Shown here: positions 3,450-23,014 of the stretch, piece after piece
Position numbering within the stretch: position 1 is the stretch's first letter
How the letters are laid out: every line of letters starts with the position of its first letter
Source: Fidelibacterota bacterium
Lineage (GTDB): Bacteria; Fidelibacterota; Fidelibacteria; Fidelibacterales; Fidelibacteraceae
Assembly: GCA_030156395.1 (NCBI GenBank)
Contig: JASGMP010000003.1
Location: forward strand, 32,711-64,710
Length of the DNA stretch: 32,000 nucleotides
Reading direction: 5' to 3'
Notes under the pieces: generated by a model
Databases searched by the model: none
Told to the model about the DNA's origin: nothing
The model's input: the letters and a program-made list of their open reading frames with translations, nothing else
Made by a program: the position numbers and the translations under genes

Positions 3450-3491
3450 GACTAATCCCACTATTTTTCAAGTAAAATACCTTTTATTTTA

Positions 3492-6944: not shown

Positions 6945-6945
6945 G

Positions 6946-7701
6946 TTAAAAGATATCAAAATACATGAGTTTAATTTCACGGTTAAAGGATTCCACATTT
7001 TCACCCCAGATGAGATTGTTCAGATCCACTTCCAGGTAGAGATTTTCGGTAATTCCCACCCGAAGTCCCGTATTCAGAAAACCATATCCACCGGAAATTT
7101 TGAATTTTTTTAAATCTGAAAATTTTTCATAGTTGAGGGCGGCATCATATTCAACCATAAGGGAGAACTGGGGGTTCAGCTCAATAGCTGCGCCGGCAAA
7201 GAAAGAAGGCATATAGGTGCTGTCCGGTTGTTCAAGGGAATAATTTACCCCGCCGTGGAGGCTTGTATTGCCGATAAAATGCCAGTTTTTACTGAGGACT
7301 GAATAAAAACCGGGGGATGGAATTTCATAATTTCCATCTGTATAGGTTCCATAGCCTTGGGAAGAAAATCCCACTGATACTCCTGGTTTTTTCATCCCTT
7401 CATCGATCAATCGGTATTTGACACTCACACCAGGCTGGGGATTCCAGGTGATGGTTTCATGACCGATTATGTGAGATCCGCCATAGGATACCCCCATGGA
7501 AAAACGGTCTGTCAACCCCACAGTTGCCCCGATAAGAACCCCACCATTGGTGGTAAAACGCAAGTCTGTCAGGTAAGATCCCCGTGCCAACGTGGCAACC
7601 GTCGGGGTATTGATGAGCTGAACCGGTGCTGGGACAAACTGGGCCGCCAGTGTACCTGCCAAAAGCAGGAACAGGAGGGTTATTTTTACACAATACTTCA
7701 T
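6946..7701 (-). CDS. Exported beta-barrel-type outer membrane protein, unknown function
   Basis: 251-aa ORF. It has a signal peptide (MKYCVKITLLFLLLAGTLAAQ) and a Gly/aromatic-rich alternating strand pattern. The C-terminal ...IKLMYFDIF ends in Phe, resembling an OMP beta-signal. AAGGGGA RBS upstream. Confidence 0.6.
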   Translation of the reverse strand: MKYCVKITLLFLLLAGTLAAQFVPAPVQLINTPTVATLARGSYLTDLRFTTNGGVLIGATVGLTDRFSMGVSYGGSHIIGHETITWNPQPGVSVKYRLIDEGMKKPGVSVGFSSQGYGTYTDGNYEIPSPGFYSVLSKNWHFIGNTSLHGGVNYSLEQPDSTYMPSFFAGAAIELNPQFSLMVEYDAALNYEKFSDLKKFKISGGYGFLNTGLRVGITENLYLEVDLNNLIWGENVESFNREIKLMYFDIF

Positions 7702-7719: not shown

Positions 7720-8688
7720 TCAAACTGCATCAGATGTTACGAACAAGTTTTCAATTTTTTTCAAATAATTCTTCAAAAGCCTCTTCTCTTCACAGGTCTT
7801 CTGCAAGCTCTGCAATTCATCAACGGCTTCCTTCCGGTCCCGGATCAGCTGGGTAAGAAATTTAATCAATCCTTTATCATTCCGTGTTGCCAGCATACGT
7901 AACACTTCATCCCACTGATCCAGCATTTCATACTGGACAAAAATGTTTCCTTTCAGCAATTGAATGGTTTTTTCACGTTCTTCCAGCAAAATCCGTTTTG
8001 TAGTACTGAAATTTTCGTCCAGGCACAAGATAGAGCGAATCTCTTTGATTATTTTGTGAATGGTTTCCACCTCTTTTTTCCAAAAGGCATCTCCTTGTCC
8101 CATGGCCAGCAAAAAGGCATGGAGGGCTTGAAAATCCGGTAGCAATTCTCCAGGAAGTTTCATGGTCAGTTTGTCAAAATCCACTATTTGGATCAGGACA
8201 AGGGGAATCAGATAATCCAAGGCTGTTTTTTGCAACTCATCGGGATGAACTATCTTTTCCGGAAACCGTTCAATTTTATTCAAAAAGTCTGCTTTCCGTT
8301 CTGGATGGAAACTTTTTTCCAATTGGAAGGGTAATTTTTTCCGCCGGCTTTCAAAATCCTGCCGTTGAAGTGTTTCTACATAAAGGGCTCCGCGAAGGGC
8401 TCCTTTGCGGTTTTGATAGGCCGATGTCTCAAAATAGAGAATCCGATCCTGATGGAAGCTGTATACCTGACAGATATTCAAAATCCTTTGTAAAACCCTA
8501 ATCTCCCGGGATAAATTATCGTGACCGGTTGCAACACCTAAAAGGTGAGCCGAGACCATGCTTCTTCGGATGGACTCGGTCAGGGTTTCCGTTTGGTGTA
8601 TATCTGTTTCGCCACGGCTGATGGCATCTATACAGTCATAGGCTGACTGAAGTGAATTGAAAAAAAAAACTTTGAGTCCGTGAATCAT
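7720..8688 (-). CDS. Hypothetical protein (helical, no recognised motif)
   Basis: 322-aa ORF with an AGGAG RBS upstream of the ATG at 8688. It sits in the co-directional gene run. I recognise no family signature. Confidence 0.5.
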   Translation of the reverse strand: MIHGLKVFFFNSLQSAYDCIDAISRGETDIHQTETLTESIRRSMVSAHLLGVATGHDNLSREIRVLQRILNICQVYSFHQDRILYFETSAYQNRKGALRGALYVETLQRQDFESRRKKLPFQLEKSFHPERKADFLNKIERFPEKIVHPDELQKTALDYLIPLVLIQIVDFDKLTMKLPGELLPDFQALHAFLLAMGQGDAFWKKEVETIHKIIKEIRSILCLDENFSTTKRILLEEREKTIQLLKGNIFVQYEMLDQWDEVLRMLATRNDKGLIKFLTQLIRDRKEAVDELQSLQKTCEEKRLLKNYLKKIENLFVTSDAV

Positions 8689-8706
8689 CCAGCCATTCTC
8701 CTGTGA

Positions 8707-9201
8707 TCAAAACGTATCCAATAAACGAGGGGAAGCATAGCTAAGCAAATGTCCTTTATGGATATCCGGTTTATCCTGAAAAGAGACCAGAGCGCAATCG
8801 CCGGGACTCATGTGGAATCCCCGAAAAACATCCAGACCGATCAGAACGCTCAAAAGTTGCCCCAGAGTTGGCTGGTGTCCCACAATCCATAAACAGGAAG
8901 GCAAATCCATCCCGGCCAACCATGAAATGATTTCTCCTGCAGAGCCATCCAGAACCAAAGGATCGGTCTGAATCATATCCCGGCTTACGTGGAAAATATT
9001 GCCCACAATCATTGCCGTTTGACGGGTTCGCATCGCCGGGCTGGTAAACATTTTGTCCGGTTTGGGAAACCAGGAATGAATCAGAGGGATAAACTGCAAG
9101 AGTTTTTGGCGTCCTTCTTCCGTTAAATTTCTATCTGAATCGCTATCATGGTGCCTTTCCCGAGGTTCGGCAAGTCCATGACGCATAAGGACGAGATTCA
9201 T
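8707..9201 (-). CDS. sixA: SixA-type phosphohistidine phosphatase (histidine phosphatase superfamily)
   Basis: 164-aa ORF with an N-terminal RHG motif (LVLMRHGLAEP) and a second His in WIVGHQPTL. The size is typical of SixA. Confidence 0.7.
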   Translation of the reverse strand: MNLVLMRHGLAEPRERHHDSDSDRNLTEEGRQKLLQFIPLIHSWFPKPDKMFTSPAMRTRQTAMIVGNIFHVSRDMIQTDPLVLDGSAGEIISWLAGMDLPSCLWIVGHQPTLGQLLSVLIGLDVFRGFHMSPGDCALVSFQDKPDIHKGHLLSYASPRLLDTF

Positions 9202-10553: not shown

Positions 10554-10590
10554 TGTGAAAAAATGCCGGACAGGACACATCCCGTCCGGC
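10554..10590 (-). terminator. Rho-independent terminator closing the rotor-stator operon
   Basis: GC-rich hairpin GCCGGAC-A-GG / acacat / CC-C-GTCCGGC at 10565-10590. On the minus strand it is followed immediately by ATTTTTTTC. It lies about 30 nt downstream of the FliG-like stop at 10622. The plus-strand side has no T-tract, so it acts on the minus strand only. Confidence 0.75.
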
Positions 10591-10621
10591 AATAAATCTC
10601 AATGTATCAGACCGTTTGCTT

Positions 10622-11557
10622 TTATTCCACCATATCCGTATCGAGAAAATCCTCAATATCAAATTTTCCCTCGGCGGCCAGCTGTTTAACGGCTTGAATC
10701 AGTTTGCGCCGTGCACTTTCCACTTTCCGCCGGGGTTGAGGGCCTTCTACATCCTTTATTTCATCTTCCAGCATAATCTGGGTTTTCTGTGGCAAATTTT
10801 CCCGGATATAGGTGACAAATTCTTCGTTCATTCCTTTCAGTGCCAAAGCCAGGTCATTTAGTTCTACACTTTTCAATGCCTCCCGGACCACATCCACAGG
10901 GAGTTTGTCAAAGCTGTCGAAGGGAATGTAATACTTCGCCAGATCCCGGGCCAGTTCCGGATCTTCATGTTGCACATGATTTACAAACTGTTCTTCAAAA
11001 TCCGGTTCCAGTTTACTGAGAATGTCAGCAATCTGTTTGGAGCCCCCTTTATTAAAATGGGCTTTATGGGGAACCAGCCGGGCTTTTTCACGAATATCAT
11101 TCTCAATGTTGATAATCCCTTCATAAGGGATTTTATCTAAGTCATTCATCTGCATCAGAACCCGGGCCCGCTCATCCTCTTCCATATTTTTAATCACATC
11201 CACCTGAATTTCAATACTTAGCTGGCTCAGGACAAGGGCTTTTACCAGCTCACTTTCCGGTTCCAGAAGGTATTTGATTTGATCCGATGACATGGGCTTT
11301 AAAAAATCAAAAAGCACTTTCTGATCTCCATCGCTGACAGCCCGGATTTTTTCAGACATAAGCTGAAAATAATACTCTTCCAAAACCTTTCTTTTCAGGT
11401 CAAACGGCACCTTGATCAGCGTTTCGGCATGGCGGCGCAATTTGTTCAGTTGTGCCTGGGAAAGGTGCCGGAACAGGGAGACGGATAAATTATCTCCCAG
11501 CATTTTATAAATGATAGCGGCCCTGTCCAGATTGGAAAGTTTTTGAGGATCACTCAT
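10622..11557 (-). CDS. fliG: FliG-like rotor/switch protein (N, M and C domains recognisable)
   Basis: 311 aa from the ATG at 11557, with an AAGGAGA RBS and an 8-nt overlap with the upstream stop. The track's longer start at 11656 lies inside the upstream gene. FliG hallmarks seen: N-domain LDRAAIIYKMLGDNLSVSLFRHLSQAQLNKL; M-domain LLEPESELVKALVLSQL (the EHPQ position reads EPES); a GG linker (NKGGSKQIADIL); C-domain EDPELARDL...LALALKGMNEE...NLPQKTQIMLEDEIKDVEGP...AAEGKFDI. Confidence 0.7.
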   Translation of the reverse strand: MSDPQKLSNLDRAAIIYKMLGDNLSVSLFRHLSQAQLNKLRRHAETLIKVPFDLKRKVLEEYYFQLMSEKIRAVSDGDQKVLFDFLKPMSSDQIKYLLEPESELVKALVLSQLSIEIQVDVIKNMEEDERARVLMQMNDLDKIPYEGIINIENDIREKARLVPHKAHFNKGGSKQIADILSKLEPDFEEQFVNHVQHEDPELARDLAKYYIPFDSFDKLPVDVVREALKSVELNDLALALKGMNEEFVTYIRENLPQKTQIMLEDEIKDVEGPQPRRKVESARRKLIQAVKQLAAEGKFDIEDFLDTDMVE

Positions 11558-13106
11558 TTTTCCGTTCTCCTTTATCTTCCGCCTGGTCTGCGGGCGTTTC
11601 ATCTTCTTCCATCCAATCCCGGATAATCTTGCTGGCAGCATCGGGATTGGCGACACTCATGTTGACAATATTTTTTCGGATCCCTTCCAGTTCCGCCTGC
11701 TTTTCAGCCATATCGGACCCCTGATCCGGTTCCCGTTCAAGTTTACTCTCTTTCTTGTTTTCGTGCAGTTCTTTCAGAATCTTTTCCCGGATAGCCTCCT
11801 CGTTGCCGGCTGCCGGCTGCCGGGTCGGTGATTCTTCTTCCTGACGCGCAATTTTTCCACGGTTCAAGATCAAAACAATCAGCACAACCACAGCCGCAAT
11901 CAGCACCGCCAAAAGACCCCAGAACCACCAGGGGATTTGAGCCTTTTGCATACTCATCAATTCTTTTTGCGTTTCAGAAAGAAGAGAGATTTTTTCGGCA
12001 ATGGCTTCTTCCAGCTCTTCTTTTTCCCGAAGCATGCTATCCGATGCCGCCCGGGTGCTTTCACGGTCTTCAACGGCCATCTGCTGAGTTGCCAGCTGAA
12101 GTTTCAATGCGGCGATTTCATCTCGGAGTTCCTGCAAGCGGGTGGTATCACGCCCCAGCATTTCAAGCCGGAGTTTCTGCTCCGTAATCATCTTTTGAGT
12201 TTCCAGATCATCAGCCAAGGACTGCCGGGTATTGAGTTTATCAATGATTTTAAGCAGCATATTTTCTGTCGGTGTGGGTTCACTGCTCCGGGGTGCTTGT
12301 ATCTGCTGTTGTTGTGAGAGACGTTCAATTTGATCCTGAATCTGGCGAATCAGTTCCTGGGTTTCATCGGTTCGTTCCCGTTCTTCACGGGAAGGTTGAT
12401 ACTCTACAGCCCCAGGTACAACACCTGTTTTCACGCCGGCTATCAATTGATCTTCACTGAAGGTCGTTGTCATAATACTCAGCATATCTCCCCGGGAGCG
12501 ATCAAAATGGGAAGCAACCATGGCCACCTGGCGAATAGATTCCACCAGATCGGGATCAATGCCTTCTTTTAGAATGATGCTGATGTCCAGTTTCCGGACT
12601 TTTGGAATCAGGGGAACAGATCGTGCCACAGAACGGCTTTTGAGTCTTTCCGGTTCTATATCCCCCACCCCGGGCAGAACGGCTGTCTGTTCTTCACGAA
12701 TCCGAGATGTATCCGAAGGCAATTCTTCTGTTAGAATATCCATTCCCCGATCACCTATCCGTGTGGGGATACCCGGAAGAATTTCATTGTATTCCTCTTC
12801 GTAGGTCCTCCCACTTTTCTGAGCTTTTTCAGTTTCAGAAGCCGCTTGTGTTGGTCGGCGTCCCGGGGTTGCCGGTTCATATACTTCCTCGACCCGCTGA
12901 TCGGGAACAAAATCCAAATCGGCTTTCACATCAACAATAAAATGATTGTTCCCGAGAATGCGTTCTATCGCCTGGGAAATTTTATTCTGGAGTGCCTGTT
13001 CGAGTTCGAGTTTCTGGGACAGATAATTCGGGGATTGACCACTCAGCATCACTGCTGTTAACAGAATTATTGTCAGAGTTAAAAACATACGATTCCGACA
13101 ATTCAT
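11550..13106 (-). CDS. FliF-like ring protein: TM1, RBM3/collar-like periplasmic domain, long coiled-coil insert, TM2, FliG-binding-like C-terminus
   Basis: 518-aa ORF with an AAGGAGAG RBS. By-eye matches to remembered Salmonella FliF segments: aa 31-78 LELEQALQNKISQAIERILGNNHFIVDVKADLDFVPDQRVEEVYEP (start of RBM3); aa 166-216 KVRKLDISIILKEGIDPDLVESIRQVAMVASHFDRSRGDMLSIMTTTF (end of RBM3, RGD..v....F); aa 476-500 IRKNIVNMSVANPDAASKIIRDWMEED (C-terminal FliG-binding helix region). TM helices lie at about aa 8-22 and 391-415. A Gln/Glu/Leu-rich heptad region spans about aa 240-389. Confidence 0.6.
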   Translation of the reverse strand: MNCRNRMFLTLTIILLTAVMLSGQSPNYLSQKLELEQALQNKISQAIERILGNNHFIVDVKADLDFVPDQRVEEVYEPATPGRRPTQAASETEKAQKSGRTYEEEYNEILPGIPTRIGDRGMDILTEELPSDTSRIREEQTAVLPGVGDIEPERLKSRSVARSVPLIPKVRKLDISIILKEGIDPDLVESIRQVAMVASHFDRSRGDMLSIMTTTFSEDQLIAGVKTGVVPGAVEYQPSREERERTDETQELIRQIQDQIERLSQQQQIQAPRSSEPTPTENMLLKIIDKLNTRQSLADDLETQKMITEQKLRLEMLGRDTTRLQELRDEIAALKLQLATQQMAVEDRESTRAASDSMLREKEELEEAIAEKISLLSETQKELMSMQKAQIPWWFWGLLAVLIAAVVVLIVLILNRGKIARQEEESPTRQPAAGNEEAIREKILKELHENKKESKLEREPDQGSDMAEKQAELEGIRKNIVNMSVANPDAASKIIRDWMEEDETPADQAEDKGERKNE

Positions 13107-13121
13107 TGTAGCTCTCCTTTA

Positions 13122-13781
13122 TTAAGATATTGCCAGGAATGTGATTTCTACCCGGCGGTTCCGGCTTTTGTTTTCCGGACTTGTATTGGGTTTTTTAGGC
13201 CGGGTATGGGCAAAACCGATGGCTCTGAACCTTTGCGGATCAATGCCCTGTGAAATATAATAATTGACGACCTGAGAGGCCCGGGCCGCCGACAATTCCC
13301 AGTTTGACGGATACTTATCCGAATGGATGGGATCACTGTCTGTATGCCCCTCCACCGCAATCTGATAAATGGAATTTTTAATCTTTGGAATAAATTTATC
13401 CAGGATGGGATAGACCTGGGGATTCAGTTCTGCACTGCCCCGAGTAAAGAGAATATCGGCCACAATAGAAATAGTGACCCCTCTGTAAGAATGGGTAACT
13501 TCTACATATTCATTCAGATTCTCTTTGTTGACAATCTCCTTTACATCCTTGTCAATCTGAGCCAGAGAAACCCGCCCGGTTCTTTCAGAAGGTTTGACTC
13601 CCAGCTCCTTTCCCATAGCCTCACTGAACTGTTCAATCTTTACAGGATCAATGGTAGACATGGAAAAAAGCAGGACAAAAAAGGTCATGAGCAGTGTCAT
13701 GATATCCGAATAGGTGACAAGCCACTCTTCCGTATCTGTTTCTTCCGGAGGAAGAGGTGATTTTTTCGTTGTTTCTTCCAT
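13122..13781 (-). CDS. motB: MotB stator subunit (conserved TM Asp, OmpA-like PG-binding domain)
   Basis: 219-aa ORF with a 1-nt TGATG overlap to motA. The TM EWLVTYSDIMTLLMTFFVLLF carries Asp26. The C-terminal domain reads VEGHTDSDP...NWELSAARASQV...NRRVEITF. Confidence 0.85.
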   Translation of the reverse strand: MEETTKKSPLPPEETDTEEWLVTYSDIMTLLMTFFVLLFSMSTIDPVKIEQFSEAMGKELGVKPSERTGRVSLAQIDKDVKEIVNKENLNEYVEVTHSYRGVTISIVADILFTRGSAELNPQVYPILDKFIPKIKNSIYQIAVEGHTDSDPIHSDKYPSNWELSAARASQVVNYYISQGIDPQRFRAIGFAHTRPKKPNTSPENKSRNRRVEITFLAIS

Positions 13782-14575
13782 CAGCTTTTACGTTCTTCTT
13801 CACGGATCCAGTCCCGTGGCGGGAGAAAGGAATTCAATTTTTCCCGGACAATAAGGGGGTGTTTCCGGTGATAGAGAAGACAGATTCCTTCGATAAGCAT
13901 CAATTGCAACATAGATGCTTTCTGAATGCGGGAATCGATTTTAGCGGCAGCCGGATTGAAAAAGAGATTTGCCAGAATGGCTCCATAAAAGGTTGTTACA
14001 ATGGCAGCCCCCATACCTTTTCCAAGCTGCTCGGCCATATCGCCTGAGGCGTCGCTCACACTCATCCCATAGAGCATCACAACCAATCCGATAAGGGTTC
14101 CGATCATTCCAAAGGCAGGAGAGAACTTTCCCATGGTTTTTACCACATTCACTTCCCCTTTTTCACGCTGTTCCCGGTTTACAATTCTCGATGTCAGGAT
14201 TTCCCGGATATCAGCATCACTGTAGCCGTCTATCACAAGCTGGATGCCATCTTTCAAAAAGGGGTGTTTCACCTCTTCAATATGTTTTTCCAGTTCTGCG
14301 GGCCCCCGCCGGGCAAAAGCTGCCAGTTCCGTAATCTGGCGGACCAGCATTTGCATATCCCGCTGTTCTTTTCTAAAGACAATGCCAATAACCTTAAAAA
14401 CGCGGCCTACTTCATGAAGTGGAAAGGCAATCAGAGTAGCGGCCAGGGATCCTCCCAAAACTATGGCAAGTGAGGGCAAGGACCAGAACATCCGGTAATC
14501 CTGAGTAAGCAAGGTAATCCCATAAAAGATCAATCCCAAGCCCATAAAAATCCCTAAGATGCTTGCAAAATCCAT
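13781..14575 (-). CDS. motA: MotA/PomA stator channel subunit
   Basis: 264-aa ORF with an AAGGAG RBS. Cytoplasmic loop LAAFARRGPAELEKHIEEVKHPFLKDGIQLVIDG; TM3 SPAFGMIGTLIGL; TM4 TTFYGAILANLFFNPAAAK. This is the canonical MotA layout. Confidence 0.85.
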   Translation of the reverse strand: MDFASILGIFMGLGLIFYGITLLTQDYRMFWSLPSLAIVLGGSLAATLIAFPLHEVGRVFKVIGIVFRKEQRDMQMLVRQITELAAFARRGPAELEKHIEEVKHPFLKDGIQLVIDGYSDADIREILTSRIVNREQREKGEVNVVKTMGKFSPAFGMIGTLIGLVVMLYGMSVSDASGDMAEQLGKGMGAAIVTTFYGAILANLFFNPAAAKIDSRIQKASMLQLMLIEGICLLYHRKHPLIVREKLNSFLPPRDWIREEERKS

Positions 14576-14584
14576 TCAGTCTCC

Positions 14585-15925
14585 TTAGTTATTGTTCATG
14601 AAGGATCCAGTCCGTGAGCGGGTTTCCTGGAGGACCTTCAGAATATTGCGGACATCATCATATTCCGGGTCGATTTGCAGTGCCAGGTTCCAATTGATAG
14701 TGGCCCTTTGGATATCTCCCATTTTGTAATAAATGGATCCGCGTCGTGCATAAGCCAGAGAAAGGTTGGGATTAAGCTGTATCGCAATATCCACTTCATT
14801 CAGTGCCTGCATATAATCGCCGGCATAAAAATATCGAAGGCTCCGGCTCAAATGTTTCAGAGCCAGATTGATATTTTGCTGCATTACATGTTGCTGAAGC
14901 TTCACCGATTGCAGAGAATCTTCCAAAACGGATTTCTGTTGCCGAAGCTGAGCGATGGTATTATTCAGATCATCTACCGTCTGGACGGAAATCCTCAGGG
15001 AATCCCGGAGCCCCATAATGGTAGCATCCGCTTCTCTGAGCAGGGAATCCAGTTCCGCGCCGTATTCAGTTTCTGATGTTTGTATTCCTGAAGCTCCATC
15101 CATAACGGCTGGTATCCCGCTCTGACGTGGGGTTCGTTCCGGCATCACCCGGGGAATCGCCAGTGTTAGTCCCAGGGAAATGGCCGGTAGATCCTTTTCA
15201 TTGCCCTTCCCAAAATTCGGCAACCACTGCATCTGGGAAATCCCCAGATTCAAACGGTATTCTGCTGTCAGGGGAATTTGCATCCCCAGATTCAGTCCTC
15301 CTCCATCAAATTCACCGATGAGGTTAATGCCACCACGATCTGCCATCATGCCCGTCTTGAACAAAAAACCGGCAAAAACGCCGATGCTTGTCGTCGTATC
15401 ATTACTGGAAAAACCCCGGGAAAATCCCCCGCTTCCCGCACCCATATAGGTATTAAATCCCGTTTCTCCTATCATTTTTTCAGTAGAAATTACAGCAAAA
15501 ACAGAAAAATCCTGATTATCCACCTGCATTTTGCCGTCGATATCCCTCAAGACAAAATCCCAAAGACCCACAGCCATTGAAATATCCCCGTACGCCATGA
15601 CCCGTTTCGTCAGGTGCAACCCATATTCCACATCGGTAGTACTCATGGAAGTAACATCATAGGGTTGAATCACAGAAAGTCCCACATTCAGTGAATTGAT
15701 AATATCCATATCAAAAAAGACACCTTTGGACATACGAAAATCCTCAATCCCATACAGATCTGAAGCGAAGCCGGTGCGGAAAAGGAAAGGAGACTGCTCC
15801 ACAGAACTTGACGGCACCCGCATCATAGATCCTGGTTTCATAAAGGAGACATGTGAGGATGCGTAGGCTGTATGGCCAGATAGTGCTACGCTCAACAGGA
15901 AAAACAGCCATTTTAATTGTTTCAT
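14585..15925 (-). CDS. Exported beta-rich (barrel-like) domain fused to coiled coil and C-terminal TPR repeats
   Basis: Start chosen at the ATG at 15925, which gives the signal peptide MKQLKWLFFLLSVALSGHTAYASS. The track start at 16069 overlaps the upstream gene by 128 nt. About 300 aa are Gly/aromatic-rich strands, followed by a heptad region (LNNTIAQLRQQKSVLEDSLQSVKLQQ) and TPRs (YFYAGDYMQALNEVDIAIQLNPNLSLAYARRGSIYYKMGDIQRATINWNLALQIDPEY). Confidence 0.6.
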   Translation of the reverse strand: MKQLKWLFFLLSVALSGHTAYASSHVSFMKPGSMMRVPSSSVEQSPFLFRTGFASDLYGIEDFRMSKGVFFDMDIINSLNVGLSVIQPYDVTSMSTTDVEYGLHLTKRVMAYGDISMAVGLWDFVLRDIDGKMQVDNQDFSVFAVISTEKMIGETGFNTYMGAGSGGFSRGFSSNDTTTSIGVFAGFLFKTGMMADRGGINLIGEFDGGGLNLGMQIPLTAEYRLNLGISQMQWLPNFGKGNEKDLPAISLGLTLAIPRVMPERTPRQSGIPAVMDGASGIQTSETEYGAELDSLLREADATIMGLRDSLRISVQTVDDLNNTIAQLRQQKSVLEDSLQSVKLQQHVMQQNINLALKHLSRSLRYFYAGDYMQALNEVDIAIQLNPNLSLAYARRGSIYYKMGDIQRATINWNLALQIDPEYDDVRNILKVLQETRSRTGSFMNNN

Positions 15926-15941
15926 TTTTTTATCACTTTTA

Positions 15942-16598
15942 TCACTGACTTTTTTGTAATTCTTTCCGGGCAAGGGCCGAATATCTGGACTCCGGATATG
16001 CCTGAAGATATACCTGAAAATAGTGATTCGATTCGGTTTGTTTCCCGAGATTCCTGAAACTGACGGCAAGCAGGATCAGAGCATTTTCCCGAAAAACCTC
16101 GCTCTCTTCGGAAATCAATTCCTGAAGAAGGACCACTGCCTCATTGTAGTTGTCTTGCCGAAAAGCACATTCCCCCAGCCAATAGAGGGCACTAAGGTTC
16201 AGTTCTTTTTCCTGGGTATTGTCTCTTACCTGCCGCAACAATTCGGCCGCCTTTCCATAGTCTCCGGCCGTAAAATGACGAAGAGCCCGGGCATAAAGCT
16301 GCTGTTCAATAAGGGGAATTCCCGGATCATCCGGCATTTTTTCTGTCATTTGTTGATTCTCTTTCAGGGTTTCTTTTAACTGCTGAACTTCTTGCTCCAG
16401 GTGTTTTATACGCTTCAGCAATGTTTCAAGAGAAACAGATTCACCTGTATCGGATTCGGAAATCTGCTGATAAGCCATAACAGAATCCCGCATGCTGGCC
16501 CGTTCCGGAAAAAGCATATCCATATCCAGCATCGGATCCTGCGAAAACGCAAGAGTAGCAAAACATGTCAAAGAACAGACAAAACATAATAATTTCAT
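15942..16598 (-). CDS. Periplasmic CpoB/YbgF-like protein (signal peptide, coiled coil, TPR)
   Basis: 218-aa ORF. Signal peptide MKLLCFVCSLTCFATLAFSQ, a short coiled coil (LETLLKRIKHLEQEVQQLKETLKE), and YbgF-type TPRs (YARALRHFTAGDYGKAAELLRQV...ALYWLGECAFRQDNYNEAVVLLQELI...YPESRYSALARKEL). Confidence 0.6.
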   Translation of the reverse strand: MKLLCFVCSLTCFATLAFSQDPMLDMDMLFPERASMRDSVMAYQQISESDTGESVSLETLLKRIKHLEQEVQQLKETLKENQQMTEKMPDDPGIPLIEQQLYARALRHFTAGDYGKAAELLRQVRDNTQEKELNLSALYWLGECAFRQDNYNEAVVLLQELISEESEVFRENALILLAVSFRNLGKQTESNHYFQVYLQAYPESRYSALARKELQKSQ

Positions 16599-16599
16599 G

Positions 16600-17541
16600 T
16601 CAGAACTGTCCTGAATTAATCATATCCCGAACCTTGCTGACCAATTCGCTTTCCGGATACTCTTCCAGCAGTGTTTTAAAAGCCTCAAGACCTTCCACTT
16701 GCCGGCCCATTTTCAGGTAGGAAAGTCCGATTTTGAACTGGGCATGATCGGCTTTATTCCCGTTCGGCAGTGTTTTGACTTTTTCAAATTCCTCAATCGC
16801 CCGGCTATAGAGCCCTTGGGCATAATACCCTTCTCCTATCCAGTATTGACAATTGTCGGAATAATCATGATCCGGAGCAATTCGAATCAATTCCCTAAAT
16901 TCCTCGATGGCTTTATTCCGTTGCCTGTCAAACAACAAGTCCAGGGCATCCTGATACCGCTGCAGATATTCATCCTGAGTCAGATCCATCACAGGACTGA
17001 TCGCCGCATCCAGAGCACATGTATCGGTTGCAACTTTTTCTGAAACCGTATCTGTTTTTACCGGTTCATCCCGGGTGATAACTTGTAATAAATTTTGTTC
17101 GGATTCTTTGACAGCCGCCGTTTCCAAGGCTTTTCGAATGGAATCCTGCGAGGCATTCAGGTACGATTGAAGCAATTCATTTTGCCGTTTCAATTCCAGG
17201 TTTTTTTCATCCAGCTCCGAGAGCATACCTTCCAGCTCTTCAGCGGACAGTTTCTCATTTATCAACCTGGCACGAAGAGAATCTCGATGGTTTTCCAGCT
17301 CAATAATATTGGATTTCAGTTCACTGATTTCACTCTGGAGGATAATAATCTGATTTTTCAGATCTAGGATCTCAATGGTTTTCTGCTGAACCTCTTGTTC
17401 GCGTCTCCGCAAATCGTCTTCAGTCCGCTGTAATTTTTCAGGGGGAACATCCGGTCGGGATCCGCCACAGGAAACAAAAAAAAGGACGGGGACAAGAAGA
17501 ACGATCATCGCATGCGGTAACGCAAAGACTCGCCTAATCAT
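16600..17541 (-). CDS. Lipoprotein with long coiled coil and CpoB/YbgF-like TPR C-terminus
   Basis: The ATG at 17541 gives a lipoprotein signal MIRRVFALPHAMIVLLVPVLFFVSCGG. The track start at 17586 is a TTG inside the upstream gene. The heptad region includes LKNQIIILQSEISELKSNIIELENHRDSL. The C-terminal TPRs read YQDALDLLFDRQRNKAIEEFRELIRIAPDHDYSDNCQYWIGEGYYAQGLYSRAIEEFEKV...YPESELVSKVRDMI. Confidence 0.6.
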   Translation of the reverse strand: MIRRVFALPHAMIVLLVPVLFFVSCGGSRPDVPPEKLQRTEDDLRRREQEVQQKTIEILDLKNQIIILQSEISELKSNIIELENHRDSLRARLINEKLSAEELEGMLSELDEKNLELKRQNELLQSYLNASQDSIRKALETAAVKESEQNLLQVITRDEPVKTDTVSEKVATDTCALDAAISPVMDLTQDEYLQRYQDALDLLFDRQRNKAIEEFRELIRIAPDHDYSDNCQYWIGEGYYAQGLYSRAIEEFEKVKTLPNGNKADHAQFKIGLSYLKMGRQVEGLEAFKTLLEEYPESELVSKVRDMINSGQF

Positions 17542-18460
17542 ATTCCTCCCAATTAATGCTGTATGAATAACCAATAAATGTACCAAAAGAAGTCGGGATA
17601 TTCAATGTGAACCTTCCTGTGGCGCCGGGCAGCAGGGCAGCATCGGAACTAACCCCGCTGGCATAATTCATAAAAGATCCTTTGACGAAAGTTGTCAGGG
17701 TTTTTGTCTCGCCACTCCAGTTCATACGAAAAACAAAGGTAACCTTCACAAAATCAGCACGACGGGCACCAATATTCTTTACCTCTCCTGAAAAAATACG
17801 ATTTCCCGAGAGATCGGTACTTTCACGGATATTTCCCACCAAAATACAATTGGCATTGACCGCTGAGGGTGAAGGTCTGTCCGGCAACTCAAGTGGGGAA
17901 ATGGTCTCCGCCGTTGGTGCAGATATCAGCCTCTCTGCAGCCTGATTCTGTGTAACGGCTGGACTTTCAATCGCCGATGAGGGAATATTATCTACAATAC
18001 GCACCACTTCATCACGAGGAATGACTACGTATCCGATAAGTGTTTGAATTTTTAAAATATCACTATCCTGATACATAATCTTGCCAAACACACTGGTCCC
18101 GTTTTGAAGGATTATTTCTTTGTTGTAAATTTTCAGAGGGTTTTCCCAAAGGCTGGATTGAGCTTTCAGCTCTTTCAGCTCGGATTCCAGATATTTAATC
18201 CGCGCTCCCTGTTTTTTTAATTCATAGGAGAGCTCATTCAACACAAAGGGATAATCCCGTTCCTGAATCACACTATCCCTGTTTCCGGATCCTGTGATCT
18301 CATTCATCTCCTGTTGGATTAAATCATTCTGCAAGGCTATTTCAGCGGAATCACCTGCAAACACTTCGTCCTCTTCGGGACCTTCGCCCCCCCTGAACCA
18401 GGCACAACCTGACAACAACACCAAAACGGTTCCCAAACGAAGCCATCGATTGAGGGACAT
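17534..18460 (-). CDS. Lipoprotein, unknown function (coiled coil + two small beta domains)
   Basis: 308-aa ORF and first gene of the operon. Canonical lipobox LVLLSGC, a short coiled coil (IKYLESELKELKAQ), and a beta-rich C-terminal domain (FSGEVKNIGARRADFVKVTFVFRM...). I cannot name a family with confidence. Confidence 0.55.
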   Translation of the reverse strand: MSLNRWLRLGTVLVLLSGCAWFRGGEGPEEDEVFAGDSAEIALQNDLIQQEMNEITGSGNRDSVIQERDYPFVLNELSYELKKQGARIKYLESELKELKAQSSLWENPLKIYNKEIILQNGTSVFGKIMYQDSDILKIQTLIGYVVIPRDEVVRIVDNIPSSAIESPAVTQNQAAERLISAPTAETISPLELPDRPSPSAVNANCILVGNIRESTDLSGNRIFSGEVKNIGARRADFVKVTFVFRMNWSGETKTLTTFVKGSFMNYASGVSSDAALLPGATGRFTLNIPTSFGTFIGYSYSINWEEYD

Positions 18461-18532
18461 CCTGTTTTCCTTTTTTATTCTGAATTTACGGTTGTTGAAT
18501 CACAACTTTCAACATATATACATACTTAAAAA

Positions 18533-18561
18533 AATATAAATTCAAAACACATGAAAGTCAA
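18533..18561 (-). promoter_or_regulatory. Sigma70-type promoter candidate for the eight-gene operon
   Basis: The minus strand reads TTGACT (18561-18556), a 17-nt spacer, then TATATT (18538-18533). It lies about 70 nt upstream of the ATG at 18460, in an AT-rich 193-nt intergenic region. Confidence 0.5.
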
Positions 18562-18653: not shown

Positions 18654-19778
18654 TCAATATCGAAGTAATCCGCACACGGGAGAGAATTCGCCCATCTCCG
18701 AGGAGATGAATTCAATTTTCGCCCCGGTATCTAAAGCCATGTGAATCAGTTCGTCGGTGATATCCAGAGTCCGCTCCATAGGATGGCCGCAGTTGGGGCA
18801 TACATCTTCTTCCTCCGTTGTCATGTACAGGCACCATTTACATACTCTGCCTTTAGTTTGAAAACCCTCCTGGATCATCAGCATATCTACCCGCCCCTGC
18901 TGGAGGGCTTCTTCCGTCTGATGTATGCCGGCAACCCCCTTATGGTTTTTGTGAAATTCATTGGCAAACATGTTCAGAATGTCTTTCTCAAAATCTATGC
19001 GGCATCCCGGAATTTCTTTATCCACAAGCTGAAAAACTTTATCCATGGAAAGATTGGGGTCTACCGGAATTTCACGGGCGATTTTATCCTTCAAGCCCGA
19101 TTTGAGATAGTTCGCAAAATCAGACATACTCTCCCGGAGTCCACCTAAAAGGATCCAGTCAAAATGGTATTTTTGATCCAGGGTATCCAGTTGTGCTGCC
19201 ACATTTTTAAAATGTTTAGCCACAACTTCTTCCCGGTGACGTTCATTTTTCCGCTCTTCCATGCCACCAAAACCACCTTCATTGGCATCTTCAGGAAGCA
19301 AATTCACCACATTGAAAAGTTCCTCCTTATTCCCAAGATGATTCATAAGAATCTTAGCCTTTCCCTGATCCACCAGAACAATGGCATAATTCCGTTCATG
19401 GCTGATGCCTTCCAGAAAAGGGCGCAGATAAGGACGATCCTGTATCACCATCATATTTTCCACGGGAAATCCCAAATGAATTACCCTCCATACATACGCC
19501 CGGTTGGATGAGATCATCATTAACGACCGGCGTTCTTCTCCCAGCTGATTTTTGAGAAATTTGATAATGCCCTCCACATCTTTCTCAACCGACATTTTCT
19601 CCTGATCCGAAAGGTTTTTATAAAATGTCTTGTCCTTTTTTTGTTTAAACATGTTATTTACCACAATATCTGCATTCCGGAGCTTTTGGGATGTTGATAC
19701 GTCAAGATAAACCGTTGTGACGGGATTTCCCTCGGTTTTCAGGGTTTGCAGAGACTGAATTACCGTTACTGAATTCAT
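18654..19778 (-). CDS. Bacterial eRF1/Pelota-like (baeRF-type) protein with inserted CxxC...CxxC zinc ribbon
   Basis: 374-aa ORF with an AAGGAGGG RBS. The N-terminal ...PVTTVYLDVS is typical of bacterial eRF1-like families. A Gly-rich loop (EGGFGGMEERKNERH) sits where eRF1 carries GGQ. Domain-3-like GVAGIHQTEEALQQGRVDMLMI and the C-terminal ...VCGLLRY resemble the eRF1/Pelota GGIxAxLRY end. The zinc ribbon is CKWCLYMTTEEEDVCPNCGHPM. Confidence 0.55.
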   Translation of the reverse strand: MNSVTVIQSLQTLKTEGNPVTTVYLDVSTSQKLRNADIVVNNMFKQKKDKTFYKNLSDQEKMSVEKDVEGIIKFLKNQLGEERRSLMMISSNRAYVWRVIHLGFPVENMMVIQDRPYLRPFLEGISHERNYAIVLVDQGKAKILMNHLGNKEELFNVVNLLPEDANEGGFGGMEERKNERHREEVVAKHFKNVAAQLDTLDQKYHFDWILLGGLRESMSDFANYLKSGLKDKIAREIPVDPNLSMDKVFQLVDKEIPGCRIDFEKDILNMFANEFHKNHKGVAGIHQTEEALQQGRVDMLMIQEGFQTKGRVCKWCLYMTTEEEDVCPNCGHPMERTLDITDELIHMALDTGAKIEFISSEMGEFSPVCGLLRY

Positions 19779-19954: not shown

Positions 19955-20377
19955 ATGAAATCACTGACAAAATACCTTACATTTAACATTCCCACACGGA
20001 TGGATTTTGTAAATATAACCGGACAGGTGGAAGATCTCGTTCGTGAATCGGGCATACAGGAGGGATTGTGCCTGGTTAATGCTATGCACATAACCGCTTC
20101 AGTTTTCATTAATGATGATGAACCTGGGCTACATCAGGATTATAAGCGCTGGCTGGAAAAACTGGCCCCCTTTGATCCGGGTACAGATCTCTATGCCCAC
20201 AACCGGACCGGAGAAGATAACGGCGATGCCCACCATAAGCGACAAATTATGGGACGTGAGGTCGTTGTGGGCATCACAAAGGGCCGTCTTGATTTCGGCC
20301 CGTGGGAACAGATTTTTTACGGCGAATTCGACGGACGCAGACCCAAACGGGTTCTGGTGAAAATGATAGGAGAATAA
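19955..20377 (+). CDS. yjbQ: YjbQ/UPF0047 family protein (secondary thiamine-phosphate synthase-type)
   Basis: The ATG at 19955 is preceded by AAGGGGG. The track start at 19898 adds 19 non-conserved residues. The family pattern is present throughout ([22 protein letters not shown]...[21 protein letters not shown]...[38 protein letters not shown]). Confidence 0.8.
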
Positions 20378-20385
20378 AGTTTCCT

Positions 20386-20691
20386 ATGGATGAGAGTCTC
20401 ATACAATCCCTCCGGGCACATATTGACAGGATTGACAAATCGCTGGTTGATCTTTTATCCCAAAGAATGGAGCTGGCATATCAGATCGGAAAGGAGAAAG
20501 GGAAAACAGGGCAACCGGTAACGGTCTTGGCCCGTGAAGAAGAAATTTACCACTCTCTGGAAGGTCTGAATTCCCGCTTTTTATCATCTGAAGACCTGAA
20601 AGCCATATTTGCACAGATCATTGCCCTGGGCCGTAAAGCCGGGGAAGAGGGGGCCAGAGAAGTAAATCAAAAGATAGGACAAACATCATGA
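20386..20691 (+). CDS. Chorismate mutase, AroQ class (monofunctional)
   Basis: 101 aa from the ATG at 20386. Pattern LRAHIDRIDKSLVDLLSQRMELAYQIGKEK...VLAREEEI. ATGA overlap with the DAHP synthase start. The track's upstream extension overlaps yjbQ. Confidence 0.8.
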   Translation: MDESLIQSLRAHIDRIDKSLVDLLSQRMELAYQIGKEKGKTGQPVTVLAREEEIYHSLEGLNSRFLSSEDLKAIFAQIIALGRKAGEEGAREVNQKIGQTS

Positions 20692-21710
20692 TTATTGTCA
20701 TGAACCCGGATGCAAAAGAAGCCCAGATTGAACAAATCTCAGAACATTTGCACAAATTGGATCTGAAAATTCACAAATCCCAGGGTGAGGATCACATGAT
20801 TCTGGGAGTTATCGGAGATATATCCCGGGTCGATATCGAAAAAGTCAAAGGATTTGACGGTGTTAACAAGGTTATCCGGATATCCGAAAGTTACAAGCAG
20901 TGTTCCCGGACATTTAAACCCACAAATACCGTTGTCCATGTAGGGAAAATCCCCTTTGGAGGCAGGGAAATTGCTGTCATCGCCGGCCCCTGTTCTGTGG
21001 AAAACGAAAAGATGGTACATAAACTCTCTCGGGAAATCAAACGGTACGGTGCCCATGTACTCAGGGGTGGCGCTTATAAACCCAGGTCATCCCCCTATAC
21101 GTTTCAAGGTTTGGGAGAAGAGGGACTAAAATACCTGCAGGATGCTGCTTTTGCATCGGGAATCCCTTGTGTTTCCGAAGTCATGGCCATATCAGATATA
21201 GATCTATTTTGCAAGTATGTAGATGCCCTGCAGGTAGGTGCCCGAAATATGCAGAATTACAGCCTTCTCAAAGCTCTGGGGACTGTAAACAAGCCGATAA
21301 TCCTCAAGCGGGGCATTTCCGCCACCGTGGAAGAGTGGCTGAATGCTGCCGAATATATTGTAAATGGCGGCAATTCACAGGTTATCTTATGCGAGCGGGG
21401 AATCCGGACATTTGAAAATTCAACCCGTTTTACCCTGGATCTTTCGTCCGTCCCCGTGGTGAAAAAATTGTCCCATCTGCCTATCATTGTGGATCCAAGC
21501 CATGCTATGGGAAACCGGGATCTTGTGGTTCCCATGGCTCGGGCCGCGGTGGCCGCCGGAGCAGACGGAATTATGGTGGAAGTCCACGACGACCCCAACA
21601 ACGCCCTCTCTGACGGTCCCCAATCTCTCTATCCCAAACAATTCAACCACCTTATGAAAGAGCTCCATATTATCAGCCAGGTCATCGGGAGGGGATTGCT
21701 GAAGAAATGA
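20688..21710 (+). CDS. aroF: 3-deoxy-7-phosphoheptulonate (DAHP) synthase, type I-beta with N-terminal ferredoxin-like regulatory domain
   Basis: 340 aa, colinear by eye with the Thermotoga-type DAHPS. N-terminal MIIVMNPDAKEAQIEQI...ILGVIGD is followed by IAGPCSVEN...VLRGGAYKPRSSPYTFQGLGEEGLKYL...IVDPSHA. Confidence 0.9.
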   Translation: MIIVMNPDAKEAQIEQISEHLHKLDLKIHKSQGEDHMILGVIGDISRVDIEKVKGFDGVNKVIRISESYKQCSRTFKPTNTVVHVGKIPFGGREIAVIAGPCSVENEKMVHKLSREIKRYGAHVLRGGAYKPRSSPYTFQGLGEEGLKYLQDAAFASGIPCVSEVMAISDIDLFCKYVDALQVGARNMQNYSLLKALGTVNKPIILKRGISATVEEWLNAAEYIVNGGNSQVILCERGIRTFENSTRFTLDLSSVPVVKKLSHLPIIVDPSHAMGNRDLVVPMARAAVAAGADGIMVEVHDDPNNALSDGPQSLYPKQFNHLMKELHIISQVIGRGLLKK

Positions 21711-23014
21711 AATCCCGTGAATTTGCAGTTATCGGTTACGGCCGTTTCGGTCGGGTATTTGCATCCATCCTTAGCCGCTACGGAAATGTATCTGTTTATG
21801 ATATCCATCCCTTTACCCCTGAAAAGAAAATCCAACAGGTATCCCTGGAGGAAGCGCTTCAAAAAGAGGTAATTTTCCTTTGTATCCCCATATCAGCCAT
21901 CCCAGCCTTTCTTCATGAGAACCGGAACAAAATAAATCCGTCATCCACCATGATAGACACAGGATCAGTCAAAATGTATCCCATACGATGGATGGATGAG
22001 ATAATCCCGCATATCCCCCACCTGGGAATCCATCCCCTTTTTGGGCCGGACAGTTACGCGGAAAACCGGGTCAATCTGATTATCCTGACACCTTCCAATC
22101 AATATCCGCAACTGGCTGAAATTTGGCGGGATACTTTTCAGGAATGGCATTTTTTTACCCGGATTCTAAGCCCGGATGAGCATGATAAACACATTGCCAA
22201 ATCCCAGGGACTCACTCATTTTATCGGAAATATTCTTTTGACCCTGAATTTACCGGAGTCTAAAACACCCACAAAGGGGTATGGAATGCTCCGGGCTGTG
22301 GAAGCTTTTTGCAGCAACGACACGCCCCAGCTTTTCAGAGATATGCTGATGTACAATGAACACTCCTCAGAGATGTTCAGGGCATTTATGAAAGCAACCC
22401 ATACCGTCGCGTCCCTGATACGTAAGGAATCTTTCAGCATCCAAAAAGAGAAGATTCGTGTCGGAGCCATGGGCGACGAAGGGAGTTTTTCCCATGAGGC
22501 CGCATTACAATACATCCGGGATCATCAGCTGGTGAATGGAGAAGTGCTTTGCCTAACATCAGCAGAAAATGTCCTGGAACATCTTGAACTGGGGCGAATC
22601 GACATCGGTCTGCTACCTATTCAAAATGCCGTAGGCGGCGTGGTTCAGGAAACCCTGACTCATCTGGCGGGAACCCGCTGCAAAATTTCCGGTCATTTCC
22701 CTTTTCTGGTCAAACAGTGTCTTTTGTCCCGGCAGGATTTTGAAGGGAAACCAGCTTCCATTCATTCACATCCTCAGGCACTTCGGCAATGCAAAAGCTA
22801 CCTGAGCACCCATTATCCGGATGTTCCCCAGATAGAAGAACGGGATACTGCTGCCGCAGCTGCCATGCTGTCTCGGGGAGATCTTCCCCCGAATGCCTTT
22901 GTGATTGCCCCTGAAACCTGTGTAAAATTGCATCATTTAAAACTGGTCCGGTCCGGTATTCAGGATTTGGACTACAATATCACGGATTTTATTTCCGTTA
23001 TCATGGATGATTGA
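21707..23014 (+). CDS. Fusion protein: prephenate dehydrogenase (TyrA) N-terminal + prephenate dehydratase (PheA PDT domain) C-terminal, no ACT domain
   Basis: aa 1-245: Rossmann motif AVIGYGRFG, catalytic region GIHPLFGPD, DEHDKHIAKSQGLTHFIG (TyrA). aa 249-435: GDEGSFSHEAA, GLLPIQNAVGGVVQETL, SHPQALRQCKSYL, RDTAAAAAML, NITDF (PDT). The protein ends a few residues after the NxTRF-equivalent motif, where an ACT domain would normally begin. Confidence 0.8.
   Translation: MKSREFAVIGYGRFGRVFASILSRYGNVSVYDIHPFTPEKKIQQVSLEEALQKEVIFLCIPISAIPAFLHENRNKINPSSTMIDTGSVKMYPIRWMDEIIPHIPHLGIHPLFGPDSYAENRVNLIILTPSNQYPQLAEIWRDTFQEWHFFTRILSPDEHDKHIAKSQGLTHFIGNILLTLNLPESKTPTKGYGMLRAVEAFCSNDTPQLFRDMLMYNEHSSEMFRAFMKATHTVASLIRKESFSIQKEKIRVGAMGDEGSFSHEAALQYIRDHQLVNGEVLCLTSAENVLEHLELGRIDIGLLPIQNAVGGVVQETLTHLAGTRCKISGHFPFLVKQCLLSRQDFEGKPASIHSHPQALRQCKSYLSTHYPDVPQIEERDTAAAAAMLSRGDLPPNAFVIAPETCVKLHHLKLVRSGIQDLDYNITDFISVIMDD

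Follow-up and report, generated by a model that had tools for sequence, protein, structure and literature searches.

A 32-kb stretch of Fidelibacterota DNA (contig JASGMP010000003.1, positions 32,711 to 64,710; 32,000 nucleotides in full, here called the window) contains an eight-gene operon that combines homologs of the flagellar stator proteins MotA and MotB and of the flagellar rotor proteins FliF and FliG with four exported partners co-inherited with them: one lipoprotein, a pair of TPR proteins of the YbgF type, and a barrel/helix/TPR protein of the outer membrane. Our analysis favors the interpretation, with a probability of roughly 0.6, that the operon encodes a stand-alone ion-driven rotor–stator machine that is derived from the flagellar basal body and is not part of a flagellum. 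An initial annotation, made from the sequence of the window, had offered a non-flagellar rotary or force-transducing envelope machine as one of its readings; this is the best fit to a FliF-like protein that has no RBM1 or RBM2, a FliG-like protein that has no EHPQR motif, and the presence of fliG without fliM or fliN in metagenome-assembled genomes (MAGs) of the phylum. In every DNA stretch inspected, the system lacks the defining features of a flagellum.

The operon comprises eight co-directional open reading frames (ORFs), designated g1 to g8, which run on the minus strand from 18460 to 10622. The starts used for g2, g4, and g8 are those called independently on identical metagenomic contigs, and family alignments also guided the choice of starts. 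The features of the operon are as follows.

18533–18561, minus: promoter-like element TTGACT-17-TATATT upstream of g1 (top match of the consensus scan, 10/12)
17534–18460, minus: g1, lipoprotein, 308 aa (lipobox LSGC, Cys19 invariant)
16600–17541, minus: g2, lipoprotein, 313 aa (lipobox FVSC; coiled coil of ~130 aa, then YbgF/CpoB-type TPR)
15942–16598, minus: g3, secreted protein, 218 aa (short coiled coil, then YbgF-type TPR)
14585–15925, minus: g4, 446 aa (signal peptide, predicted beta-barrel domain at ~47–258, 80-residue helix at 286–368, TPR at 371–445)
13781–14575, minus: g5, flagellar-type MotA, 264 aa (MotA_ExbB, 1.9e-25)
13122–13781, minus: g6, MotB, 219 aa (plug, channel Asp26, OmpA-type peptidoglycan-binding domain)
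11550–13106, minus: g7, FliF-like, 518 aa (YscJ_FliF_C match; RBM3/collar only)
10622–11557, minus: g8, FliG-like, 311 aa (N, M, and C domains)
10554–10591, minus: intrinsic terminator 3′ of g8

With these starts, the gene junctions of the initial annotation are recovered exactly (−8, +1, +16, +9, −1, +15, and −8 nt), as are all ORFs, the terminator, and the domain calls, and the eight-gene operon is real. The terminator is strong, with a GC-rich 12-bp stem (10591–10564, eight G-C pairs), a 4-nt loop, and a following TTTTTT run. The promoter-like element is present and is the best match of the scan, but such matches as a class are not above chance (20 observed versus 13.7 ± 4.1 in shuffles); the scan used a sigma-70 consensus, which the phylum may not use in its promoters, and the element taken alone is weak evidence of a promoter.

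Pfam scans of every window ORF of at least 110 aa identified no fliH/I/J, fliM/N, flhA/B, fliPQR, rod, hook, or filament gene in the 32 kb. The proposal that the window contains no other flagellar gene therefore stands for the export, rod, hook, filament, and FliM/N genes, but not for the stator, as a second flagellar-type stator set lies at 1239–3461.

Rotor, stator, and exported proteins

The FliG-like protein (g8) matches all three FliG domains of Pfam above their cut-offs (FliG_N, PF14842, 2e-12; FliG_M, PF14841, 5e-9; FliG_C, PF01706, 4e-22), and its family profile matches the structures of T. maritima FliG (1lkv, 2e-36) and of full-length A. aeolicus FliG (3hjl, 3e-30; residues 3–303 aligned). 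Canonical FliG proteins are 20–24% identical to g8, with no matches between ~44% and 24% identity, and the NCBIfam FliG model (TIGR00207) scores 94.5 bits versus an equivalog cut-off of 226.7. In the window's clade, the torque helix carries K241, K258, D265, E266, and R276, which correspond to E. coli K264, R281, D288, D289, and R297. The EHPQR motif of FliG binds FliM; in the M domain of g8 the motif is not kept, with Glu (E101) alone conserved and the His, Gln, and Arg positions replaced.

In the FliF-like protein (g7), a predicted hydrophobic helix at the N-terminus (residues 3–22) is followed by RBM3 (~34–220), into which a collar-like segment is inserted, by helices at 240–388, and by a predicted second transmembrane helix (TM2, 393–421); the cytoplasmic tail ends in SVANPDAASKIIRDWMEE. 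The long helices between RBM3 and TM2 account for ~150 residues. Pfam YscJ_FliF_C (PF08345) matches at 1.8e-7, above the Pfam cut-off, and the NCBIfam FliF model (TIGR00206) scores 35.9 bits versus an equivalog cut-off of 129.75. Searches with phmmer aligned Vibrio FliF (8z5s) over residues 268–455 and matched FliF 9yh6 at 5e-6. The AlphaFold model has a predicted local distance difference test (pLDDT) score of 63 overall and ~80 in the alpha-beta-beta ... beta-beta-alpha elements of the RBM; FliF structures make up all of its nine top Foldseek matches, and eight of these show the MS ring or the RBM3/collar (S ring).

In flagella, RBM3 is the ring-forming module of FliF, RBM1 and RBM2 form an inner ring around the export gate, and the C-terminus of FliF binds the N domain of FliG. 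No RBM1 or RBM2 was found in g7: PF01514 (the YscJ/FliF N-terminal family) gives no match, and only ~30 residues precede RBM3. The g7 tail NPDAASKIIRDWMEE aligns, below threshold, to the Vibrio FliF C-terminus EPELAAQVVKNWMND (phmmer), and P488, A491, W498, and RGD205–207 are invariant or nearly so in the family. The FliF–FliG interface thus looks preserved, with a putative FliG-binding motif kept at the C-terminus of g7.

The MotA protein (g5) is matched in NCBIfam by MotP (7.5e-54) and PomA (2.8e-44), and by TolQ at 0.04, in each case below the equivalog cut-offs; its best PDB match is C. sporogenes MotA (1e-43). Two residues of E. coli MotA, R90 and E98, are known to contact FliG (PMC12505986). 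Their equivalents, R89 and E96, are invariant in 36/36 family sequences, as is the channel proline P153, and R89 and E96 remain so even in clades in which the torque helix of the FliG-like protein is shorter. In keeping with the flagellar-type stators (“FIT”) of the same study, g5 is nearer to MotA/PomA/MotP than to TolQ/ExbB and has the R90/E98 equivalents. The MotB protein (g6) matches MotB_plug (PF13677, 1.8e-19), OmpA (PF00691, 3.9e-20), and MotD/MotS (1e-50), and its channel Asp26 is present in 37 of 39 aligned sequences. Judged by sequence, the pair is a flagellar-type 5:2 stator with a channel Asp, a plug, and a peptidoglycan anchor. Taken with the residues of g7 and g8, the stator–rotor interface looks preserved, and the interfaces with the switch complex and the export gate (RBM1/RBM2) are gone.

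The second stator set of the window consists of three genes.

1239–3461, minus: second stator set (MotA2, 2628–3461; MotB-like protein without the channel Asp, 1940–2635; MotB2, 1239–1943)

MotA2 is MotP/PomA-like (NCBIfam MotP, 7e-53), and its Arg and Glu are spaced as R90 and E98 are in E. coli. In the MotB-like protein, Ser replaces the channel Asp; in MotB2, both the plug and the channel Asp are present. It may be conjectured, by analogy with dual-stator flagellar motors, that this set could feed the same rotor. A 387-aa protein without a family assignment (3492–4655, minus) precedes the set.

The first gene of the operon, g1, encodes a lipoprotein in which a helix, an SH3-like segment, and a Pro-rich linker precede a highly conserved beta-rich domain at the C-terminus. 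It has no Pfam family, a weak NCBIfam match to Lepto_7_Nterm (residues 113–156), and, when its family profile was searched against solved structures in the PDB, no sequence relative. The next two proteins score below the cut-off of 90.1 bits for the tol_pal_ybgF model (TIGR02795), g2 at 68 bits (1.1e-18) and g3 at 56 bits (5e-15); both match TPR_6 (1.4e-12 and 5.8e-13, respectively). In a close relative (L012, UBA6817), an OmpA/Pal-like gene and then a YbgF-like coiled-coil TPR gene (13875–15300) form a separate pair ~3 kb downstream of the operon, which suggests that the two YbgF-type genes of the operon are paralogs of a genuine Tol-Pal CpoB.

The initial annotation described g4 as a barrel–TPR fusion, and structure prediction bears this out. 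Its AlphaFold model (pLDDT 75.8) has a beta domain, a long helix, roughly 12 nm in length, and a TPR; Foldseek matches the beta domain to outer-membrane barrels (FapF, OmpG, a COG4313 channel, PorV, and VhGalP) and the C-terminal tail to consensus TPRs. There are 1258 homologs of g4 at E ≤ 1e-3. Across the eight proteins, the profile hidden Markov model searches that had been proposed as a check gave significant matches for FliG, MotA, MotB/OmpA, the YbgF-type TPR, and the C-terminal region of FliF, but none for PF01514.

Conservation, related fusion loci, and surrounding genes

The phylum Marinimicrobia (SAR406) is one of the most abundant in the ocean and is mostly uncultured. Proteins identical to the FliG-like protein of the window occur on metagenomic contigs, and at the FliG-like gene the window is ~97% identical to Marinimicrobia bacterium 46_43, which stems from an oil-reservoir metagenome (PMC4725000). 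A scan of one genome per species identified 41 loci, and nearly all come from genomes whose titles name Marinimicrobia, Neomarinimicrobiota, or Fidelibacterota. A few are labeled “uncultured bacterium” or Lentisphaeria (loci L031, L036, and L045), and a 3.1-kb contig from a “Candidatus Bathyarchaeota archaeon” MAG (L047, JAUVYS010000166.1) encodes MotA, MotB, FliF-like, and FliG-like proteins; the Bathyarchaeota and Lentisphaeria labels are most likely binning or labeling errors and not occurrences outside the phylum.

When the ORFs of all loci were searched with the eight window proteins, the order g1, TPR gene(s), g4, MotA, MotB, FliF-like, FliG-like was found in all 33 loci with enough upstream DNA, so that the neighborhood, whose conservation in related genomes had been put forward as a check, proves to be conserved across the whole phylum. 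Six of the 33 have one TPR gene instead of two between g1 and g4, and in the eight loci that are truncated, the part retained follows the order expected. Because the same order recurs in 33/33 related loci, among which the FliG-like proteins are 30–97% identical, the arrangement is far beyond chance. The lipoprotein g1 is the first gene in every complete locus (33/33; E from 1e-73 to 1e-188), and g4 is the best-conserved accessory gene (E from 1e-90 to 1e-268). For all eight genes, the ratio of nonsynonymous to synonymous substitution rates (dN/dS) relative to the closest relative (L011) is 0.04–0.15, with the FliG-like gene lowest; together with the conservation of the locus, these values indicate a functional unit and not a relic. 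In one clade, a 404-aa TPR gene lies directly 3′ of the FliG-like gene on the same strand (L007/L015, 10945–12159, and six similar loci), and its product may be a ninth component in that clade.

The flanks of the operon differ between clades and are of housekeeping type (NUDIX, methyltransferase, SSB, UPRTase, LptD, and MgsA). Pfam annotation of ±10 kb around three related loci revealed no flagellar gene, and those conserved ORF families of the flanks that were scanned are all housekeeping, with no flagellar gene among them. A wider view comes from MAGs of oxygen-deficient zones, in which fliG, fliM, and fliNY were scored (PMC10359470, supplement 4). Among 12 Marinisomatota rows examined in that supplement, fliG is recorded alone (fliM = 0, fliNY = 0) in eight, one of these MAGs being 93% complete with 0% contamination; the other four rows have none of fliG, fliM, and fliNY, and fliM, fliNY, cheA, cheB, and cheR are scored in 0/12 (PMC10359470). 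The sole isolate of the phylum, Fidelibacter multiformis, is non-motile (PMC11652737).

Relatives of the rotor were also found in other lineages. When the profile of the FliG-like family was searched against 1.84 billion representative proteins, 198 matches were obtained at E ≤ 1e-30. Among the best 150, ~37 are proteins of 560–725 aa whose C-terminal 300 residues form a complete FliG-like region. A signal or transmembrane segment is present in their N-terminal halves, along with an RBM3-like region, an insert rich in Pro, and a transmembrane helix; the Marinimicrobia FliF-like profile matches the RBM3-like region of about half of these proteins (1e-5 to 6e-15), and Pfam YscJ_FliF_C matches it in two. 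On this sequence evidence, these proteins (in the set P0196–P0325) are natural fusions of an RBM3-only FliF to FliG.

Seven distinct genomic contexts of these fusions were examined (loci L052–L060, GC content 41–69%). In every context the fusion adjoins a small TPR protein with a specific match to the TPR at the C-terminus of g4 (E from 1e-6 to 2e-26), an indication that the rotor has the g4 TPR as a direct partner. The fusion is usually preceded by a ~350-aa protein that ends in an outer-membrane barrel signal (GYDLxLGIRF); MotA and MotB are directly downstream in three contexts (L055, L056, and L059/L060), and L052 carries a PorP/SprF-like barrel. From the gene content of these loci, the core that recurs combines MotAB and a FliF-RBM3/FliG rotor with a g4-type TPR and a barrel of the outer membrane. 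Homology of the g4 barrel with the ~350-aa barrels is not claimed, as hhalign detected no similarity between them (probability 7%). In a neighbor-joining analysis, the FliG domains of the Marinimicrobia, fusion-type, and canonical proteins formed three nearly clean groups; the tree is unrooted and does not address the sisterhood of the two non-canonical groups, and mean pairwise scores between these two are only slightly higher (100 versus 94 bits).

Two of the fusion loci have further neighbors. L055 runs on into a MoxR/DUF58/VWA (Bat-like) operon, and in L057/L058 a divergent gene for a PilZ-domain protein (8456–8797) is located just upstream of the TPR and fusion pair. PilZ proteins brake flagellar motors through FliG or MotA in other bacteria; by analogy, control of the L057/L058 system by cyclic di-GMP is conceivable.

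The other ORFs of the window are housekeeping genes by Pfam, including a shikimate/aromatic amino-acid operon, YchF, a protein with HD-GYP and GAF domains, and a peroxiredoxin; Rfam found no RNA family in the window. Downstream of the terminator, the genes are unrelated to the operon, as the initial annotation had stated (rubrerythrin-like, acyltransferase, and histidine phosphatase). The aromatic amino-acid operon is compact (20302–28322, plus) and encodes chorismate mutase, DAHP synthase, a prephenate dehydrogenase/dehydratase fusion, EPSP synthase, shikimate dehydrogenase, chorismate synthase, shikimate kinase, dehydroquinate synthase, and a type II dehydroquinase. Between the rotor–stator operon and the second stator set lies the gene for the GAF and HD/HD_5 (HD-GYP-type) protein (5292–7004, minus), a possible cyclic-nucleotide phosphodiesterase whose position is matched in the same species only. 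Directly upstream of g1 is a gene of baeRF family 10 (18654–19778, minus), which is bacterial eRF1-like and resembles ribosome-hibernation factors. It is present in the window's clade and nearest relatives (L007, L009–L013, L015, and L017–L021) and not at that position in most marine loci; considered as a component of the operon, it was rejected, being syntenic in nine loci only, and is probably an unrelated neighbor.

Proposed mechanism and alternative explanations

A mechanism can be proposed for a stand-alone rotor–stator machine. Ion flow through peptidoglycan-anchored MotAB would turn a FliG ring mounted on the FliF-like ring of the inner membrane. On the periplasmic side, long helices of the FliF-like protein would lift the RBM3 ring off the inner membrane into the periplasm, where the TPR of g4, hung on its helix from the outer-membrane barrel, could dock on it, perhaps together with g1–g3. 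Force or rotation would then be passed to the outer membrane or the cell surface, and the output might be the movement of outer-membrane proteins, a surface structure, or remodeling of the envelope.

Several observations weigh against this interpretation. In the marine and Fidelibacterota clades (loci L025–L051; residues of the FliG-like protein equivalent to 262–272 of the window), the torque helix is four residues shorter (QAMYEP-KEGP versus QIMLEDEIKDVEGP) and keeps K/R258 and E264 only, the acidic pair equivalent to D288/D289 having been lost; with a shorter helix and a single acidic residue, the stator–rotor interface would not be canonical in every clade. All operon proteins fall short of the NCBIfam equivalog cut-offs; this is consistent with their divergence and means that function is not simply transferable from the flagellar proteins. 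The model of g7 is of moderate confidence (pLDDT 63), with modest Foldseek E-values (best 5.5e-5). We infer ring formation and rotation from sequence and predicted models, and no output component was identified. The absence of flagellar genes covers the window, the annotated flanks, and 12 MAG rows, and is indirect for whole genomes; similarly, the non-motility of the isolate is evidence at the level of the phylum.

As the scans for flagellar genes covered the window and the annotated flanks, there is some room for a true flagellum of which the operon is a very derived basal-body part, with the remaining genes elsewhere and the TPR and barrel proteins serving as motor accessories comparable to PflA/PflB or the spirochete collar proteins. 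All four core proteins do belong to flagellar families, complex flagellar motors are known to have TPR scaffolds in the periplasm, and a window with two stator sets is reminiscent of dual-stator motors. We nevertheless consider such a flagellum improbable: the FliF-like protein has no RBM1/RBM2 (no PF01514 match), the FliG-like protein has no FliM-binding EHPQR motif, the annotated flanks contain no flagellar genes, the isolate of the phylum is non-motile, and the Marinisomatota rows examined in the published supplement have fliG in 8/12 and fliM or fliNY in 0/12. The reduced flagellar gene set and the non-motility of the phylum's sole cultured member might be expected of a decaying relic of a lost flagellum that has no present function. 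That explanation is barely credible given intact reading frames, a gene order conserved in 33/33 loci at 30–97% identity, dN/dS of 0.04–0.15, invariant functional residues, and the co-inheritance of non-flagellar partner genes with the core.

The system might instead be a force transducer like Tol-Pal or TonB, without continuous rotation, in which MotAB pulls on a static platform of FliG-like and FliF-like proteins to energize outer-membrane tethering, constriction, or transport through the g4 barrel. The two YbgF/CpoB-type TPR proteins would suit such a role, as would the anchoring of MotB to peptidoglycan, the resemblance of the g4 barrel to secretion and diffusion channels such as FapF and OmpG, and the truncated torque helix of most clades. 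It is doubtful all the same: the stator is of the flagellar type and not TolQR/ExbBD, MotA R89/E96 and the C domain of the FliG-like protein are strongly constrained, RBM3 is a ring-forming module, and in L012 a separate Pal-like and YbgF-like pair is present near the operon. A related suggestion of the initial annotation, that the operon is an evolutionary intermediate between Tol-Pal and the flagellum, is the least supported and was rejected, as the flagellar type of the stator (MotP/PomA at 1e-54 versus TolQ at 0.04) makes derivation from the flagellar motor more likely.

The operon is best read as encoding a rotor–stator machine that is derived from the flagellar motor and works without a flagellum, and there is a substantial chance that such a machine belongs to a new class of envelope motors. 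A broader proposal, to which we give somewhat less than even odds, is a new class of flagellar-motor-derived rotary machines without type III secretion, universal in SAR406/Marinimicrobia and represented by fusions in other phyla, which deliver torque to the outer membrane or cell surface. In the literature searched, of which coverage was partial, we found no description of the operon or of natural FliF::FliG fusions. If the proposal is correct, envelope-spanning motors would be of three kinds, the flagellum, the GldLM/Agl gliding motors, and this machine, and there would be a living example of a use for “half a flagellar motor.” Whether sub-assemblies of the flagellar motor could be functional alone has long been debated (bioRxiv 10.1101/2024.12.05.626484); the operon offers that debate a concrete, testable case, a rotor–stator core under strong purifying selection without secretion, axial, or switch parts. 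If the machine rotates, torque generation by FliG and MotA would be used outside flagella, and its study could reveal a new way to energize the outer membrane. For annotation, fliG matches in Marinisomatota genomes should not be taken as evidence of flagellar motility.

Comparison with known systems

The core of the flagellar motor belongs to families homologous to those of the operon, which keeps the MotA Arg/Glu pair, the torque charges of FliG, the Asp, plug, and OmpA domain of MotB, the RBM3/collar of FliF with a putative C-terminal FliG-binding motif, and the overlapping adjacency of the FliF and FliG genes. In contrast to that core, the FliF-like protein has no RBM1/RBM2 and has gained a helical segment of ~150 residues, the FliG-like protein has no EHPQR motif, and the operon and its flanks contain no FliM/FliN, export, rod, hook, or filament genes; the operon adds a lipoprotein, TPR proteins, and an outer-membrane barrel. 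The fusion modules of other lineages (L052–L060) share with it an RBM3-only FliF part, a complete FliG-like part, a g4-type TPR, a barrel, and, in three contexts, MotAB. Unlike the operon, they encode the rotor as one polypeptide and the barrel and TPR as two distinct proteins, and they have no homologs of g1–g3.

Periplasmic TPR or coiled-coil proteins are also found with MotAB-driven rotors in Campylobacter and Helicobacter (PflA/PflB) and in the collar of spirochetes, and presumably surround the rotor as those of the operon may do. These scaffolds, however, decorate a complete flagellum, whereas one partner in the operon is itself an outer-membrane barrel; no sequence relationship of the operon TPR proteins to PflA/PflB or the collar proteins was found, with generic TPR matches only in Pfam and NCBIfam. 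The Tol-Pal system with CpoB resembles the operon in the YbgF-type TPR that follows a coiled coil in g2 and g3, and in linking an ion-driven motor to peptidoglycan and the outer membrane. It differs in that g2 and g3 score below the 90.1-bit cut-off (68 and 56 bits) and that the motor of the operon is flagellar-type MotAB with a FliG/FliF rotor; no TolQ/R/A/B or Pal gene is present in the operon.

Marinimicrobia belong to the FCB (Fibrobacteres–Chlorobi–Bacteroidetes) group, as do the Bacteroidota. None of the eight operon proteins matches GldL, GldM, GldK, or GldN in Pfam or NCBIfam, and the GldLM/PorLM system, with its GldKN/PorKN track, differs from the operon in that the motor of the latter consists of MotAB/FliG/FliF homologs, for which coupling to a barrel is proposed from gene content and predicted structure. 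GldLM drives a periplasmic track that drags barrels of the SprF/PorG type through the outer membrane (PMC12635249). As an ion-driven rotary motor of the inner membrane that acts on outer-membrane barrels, it is the closest working analog of the operon, and the likeness extends to the PorP/SprF-like barrel of one fusion locus and to the g4 barrel, which resembles PorV among others.

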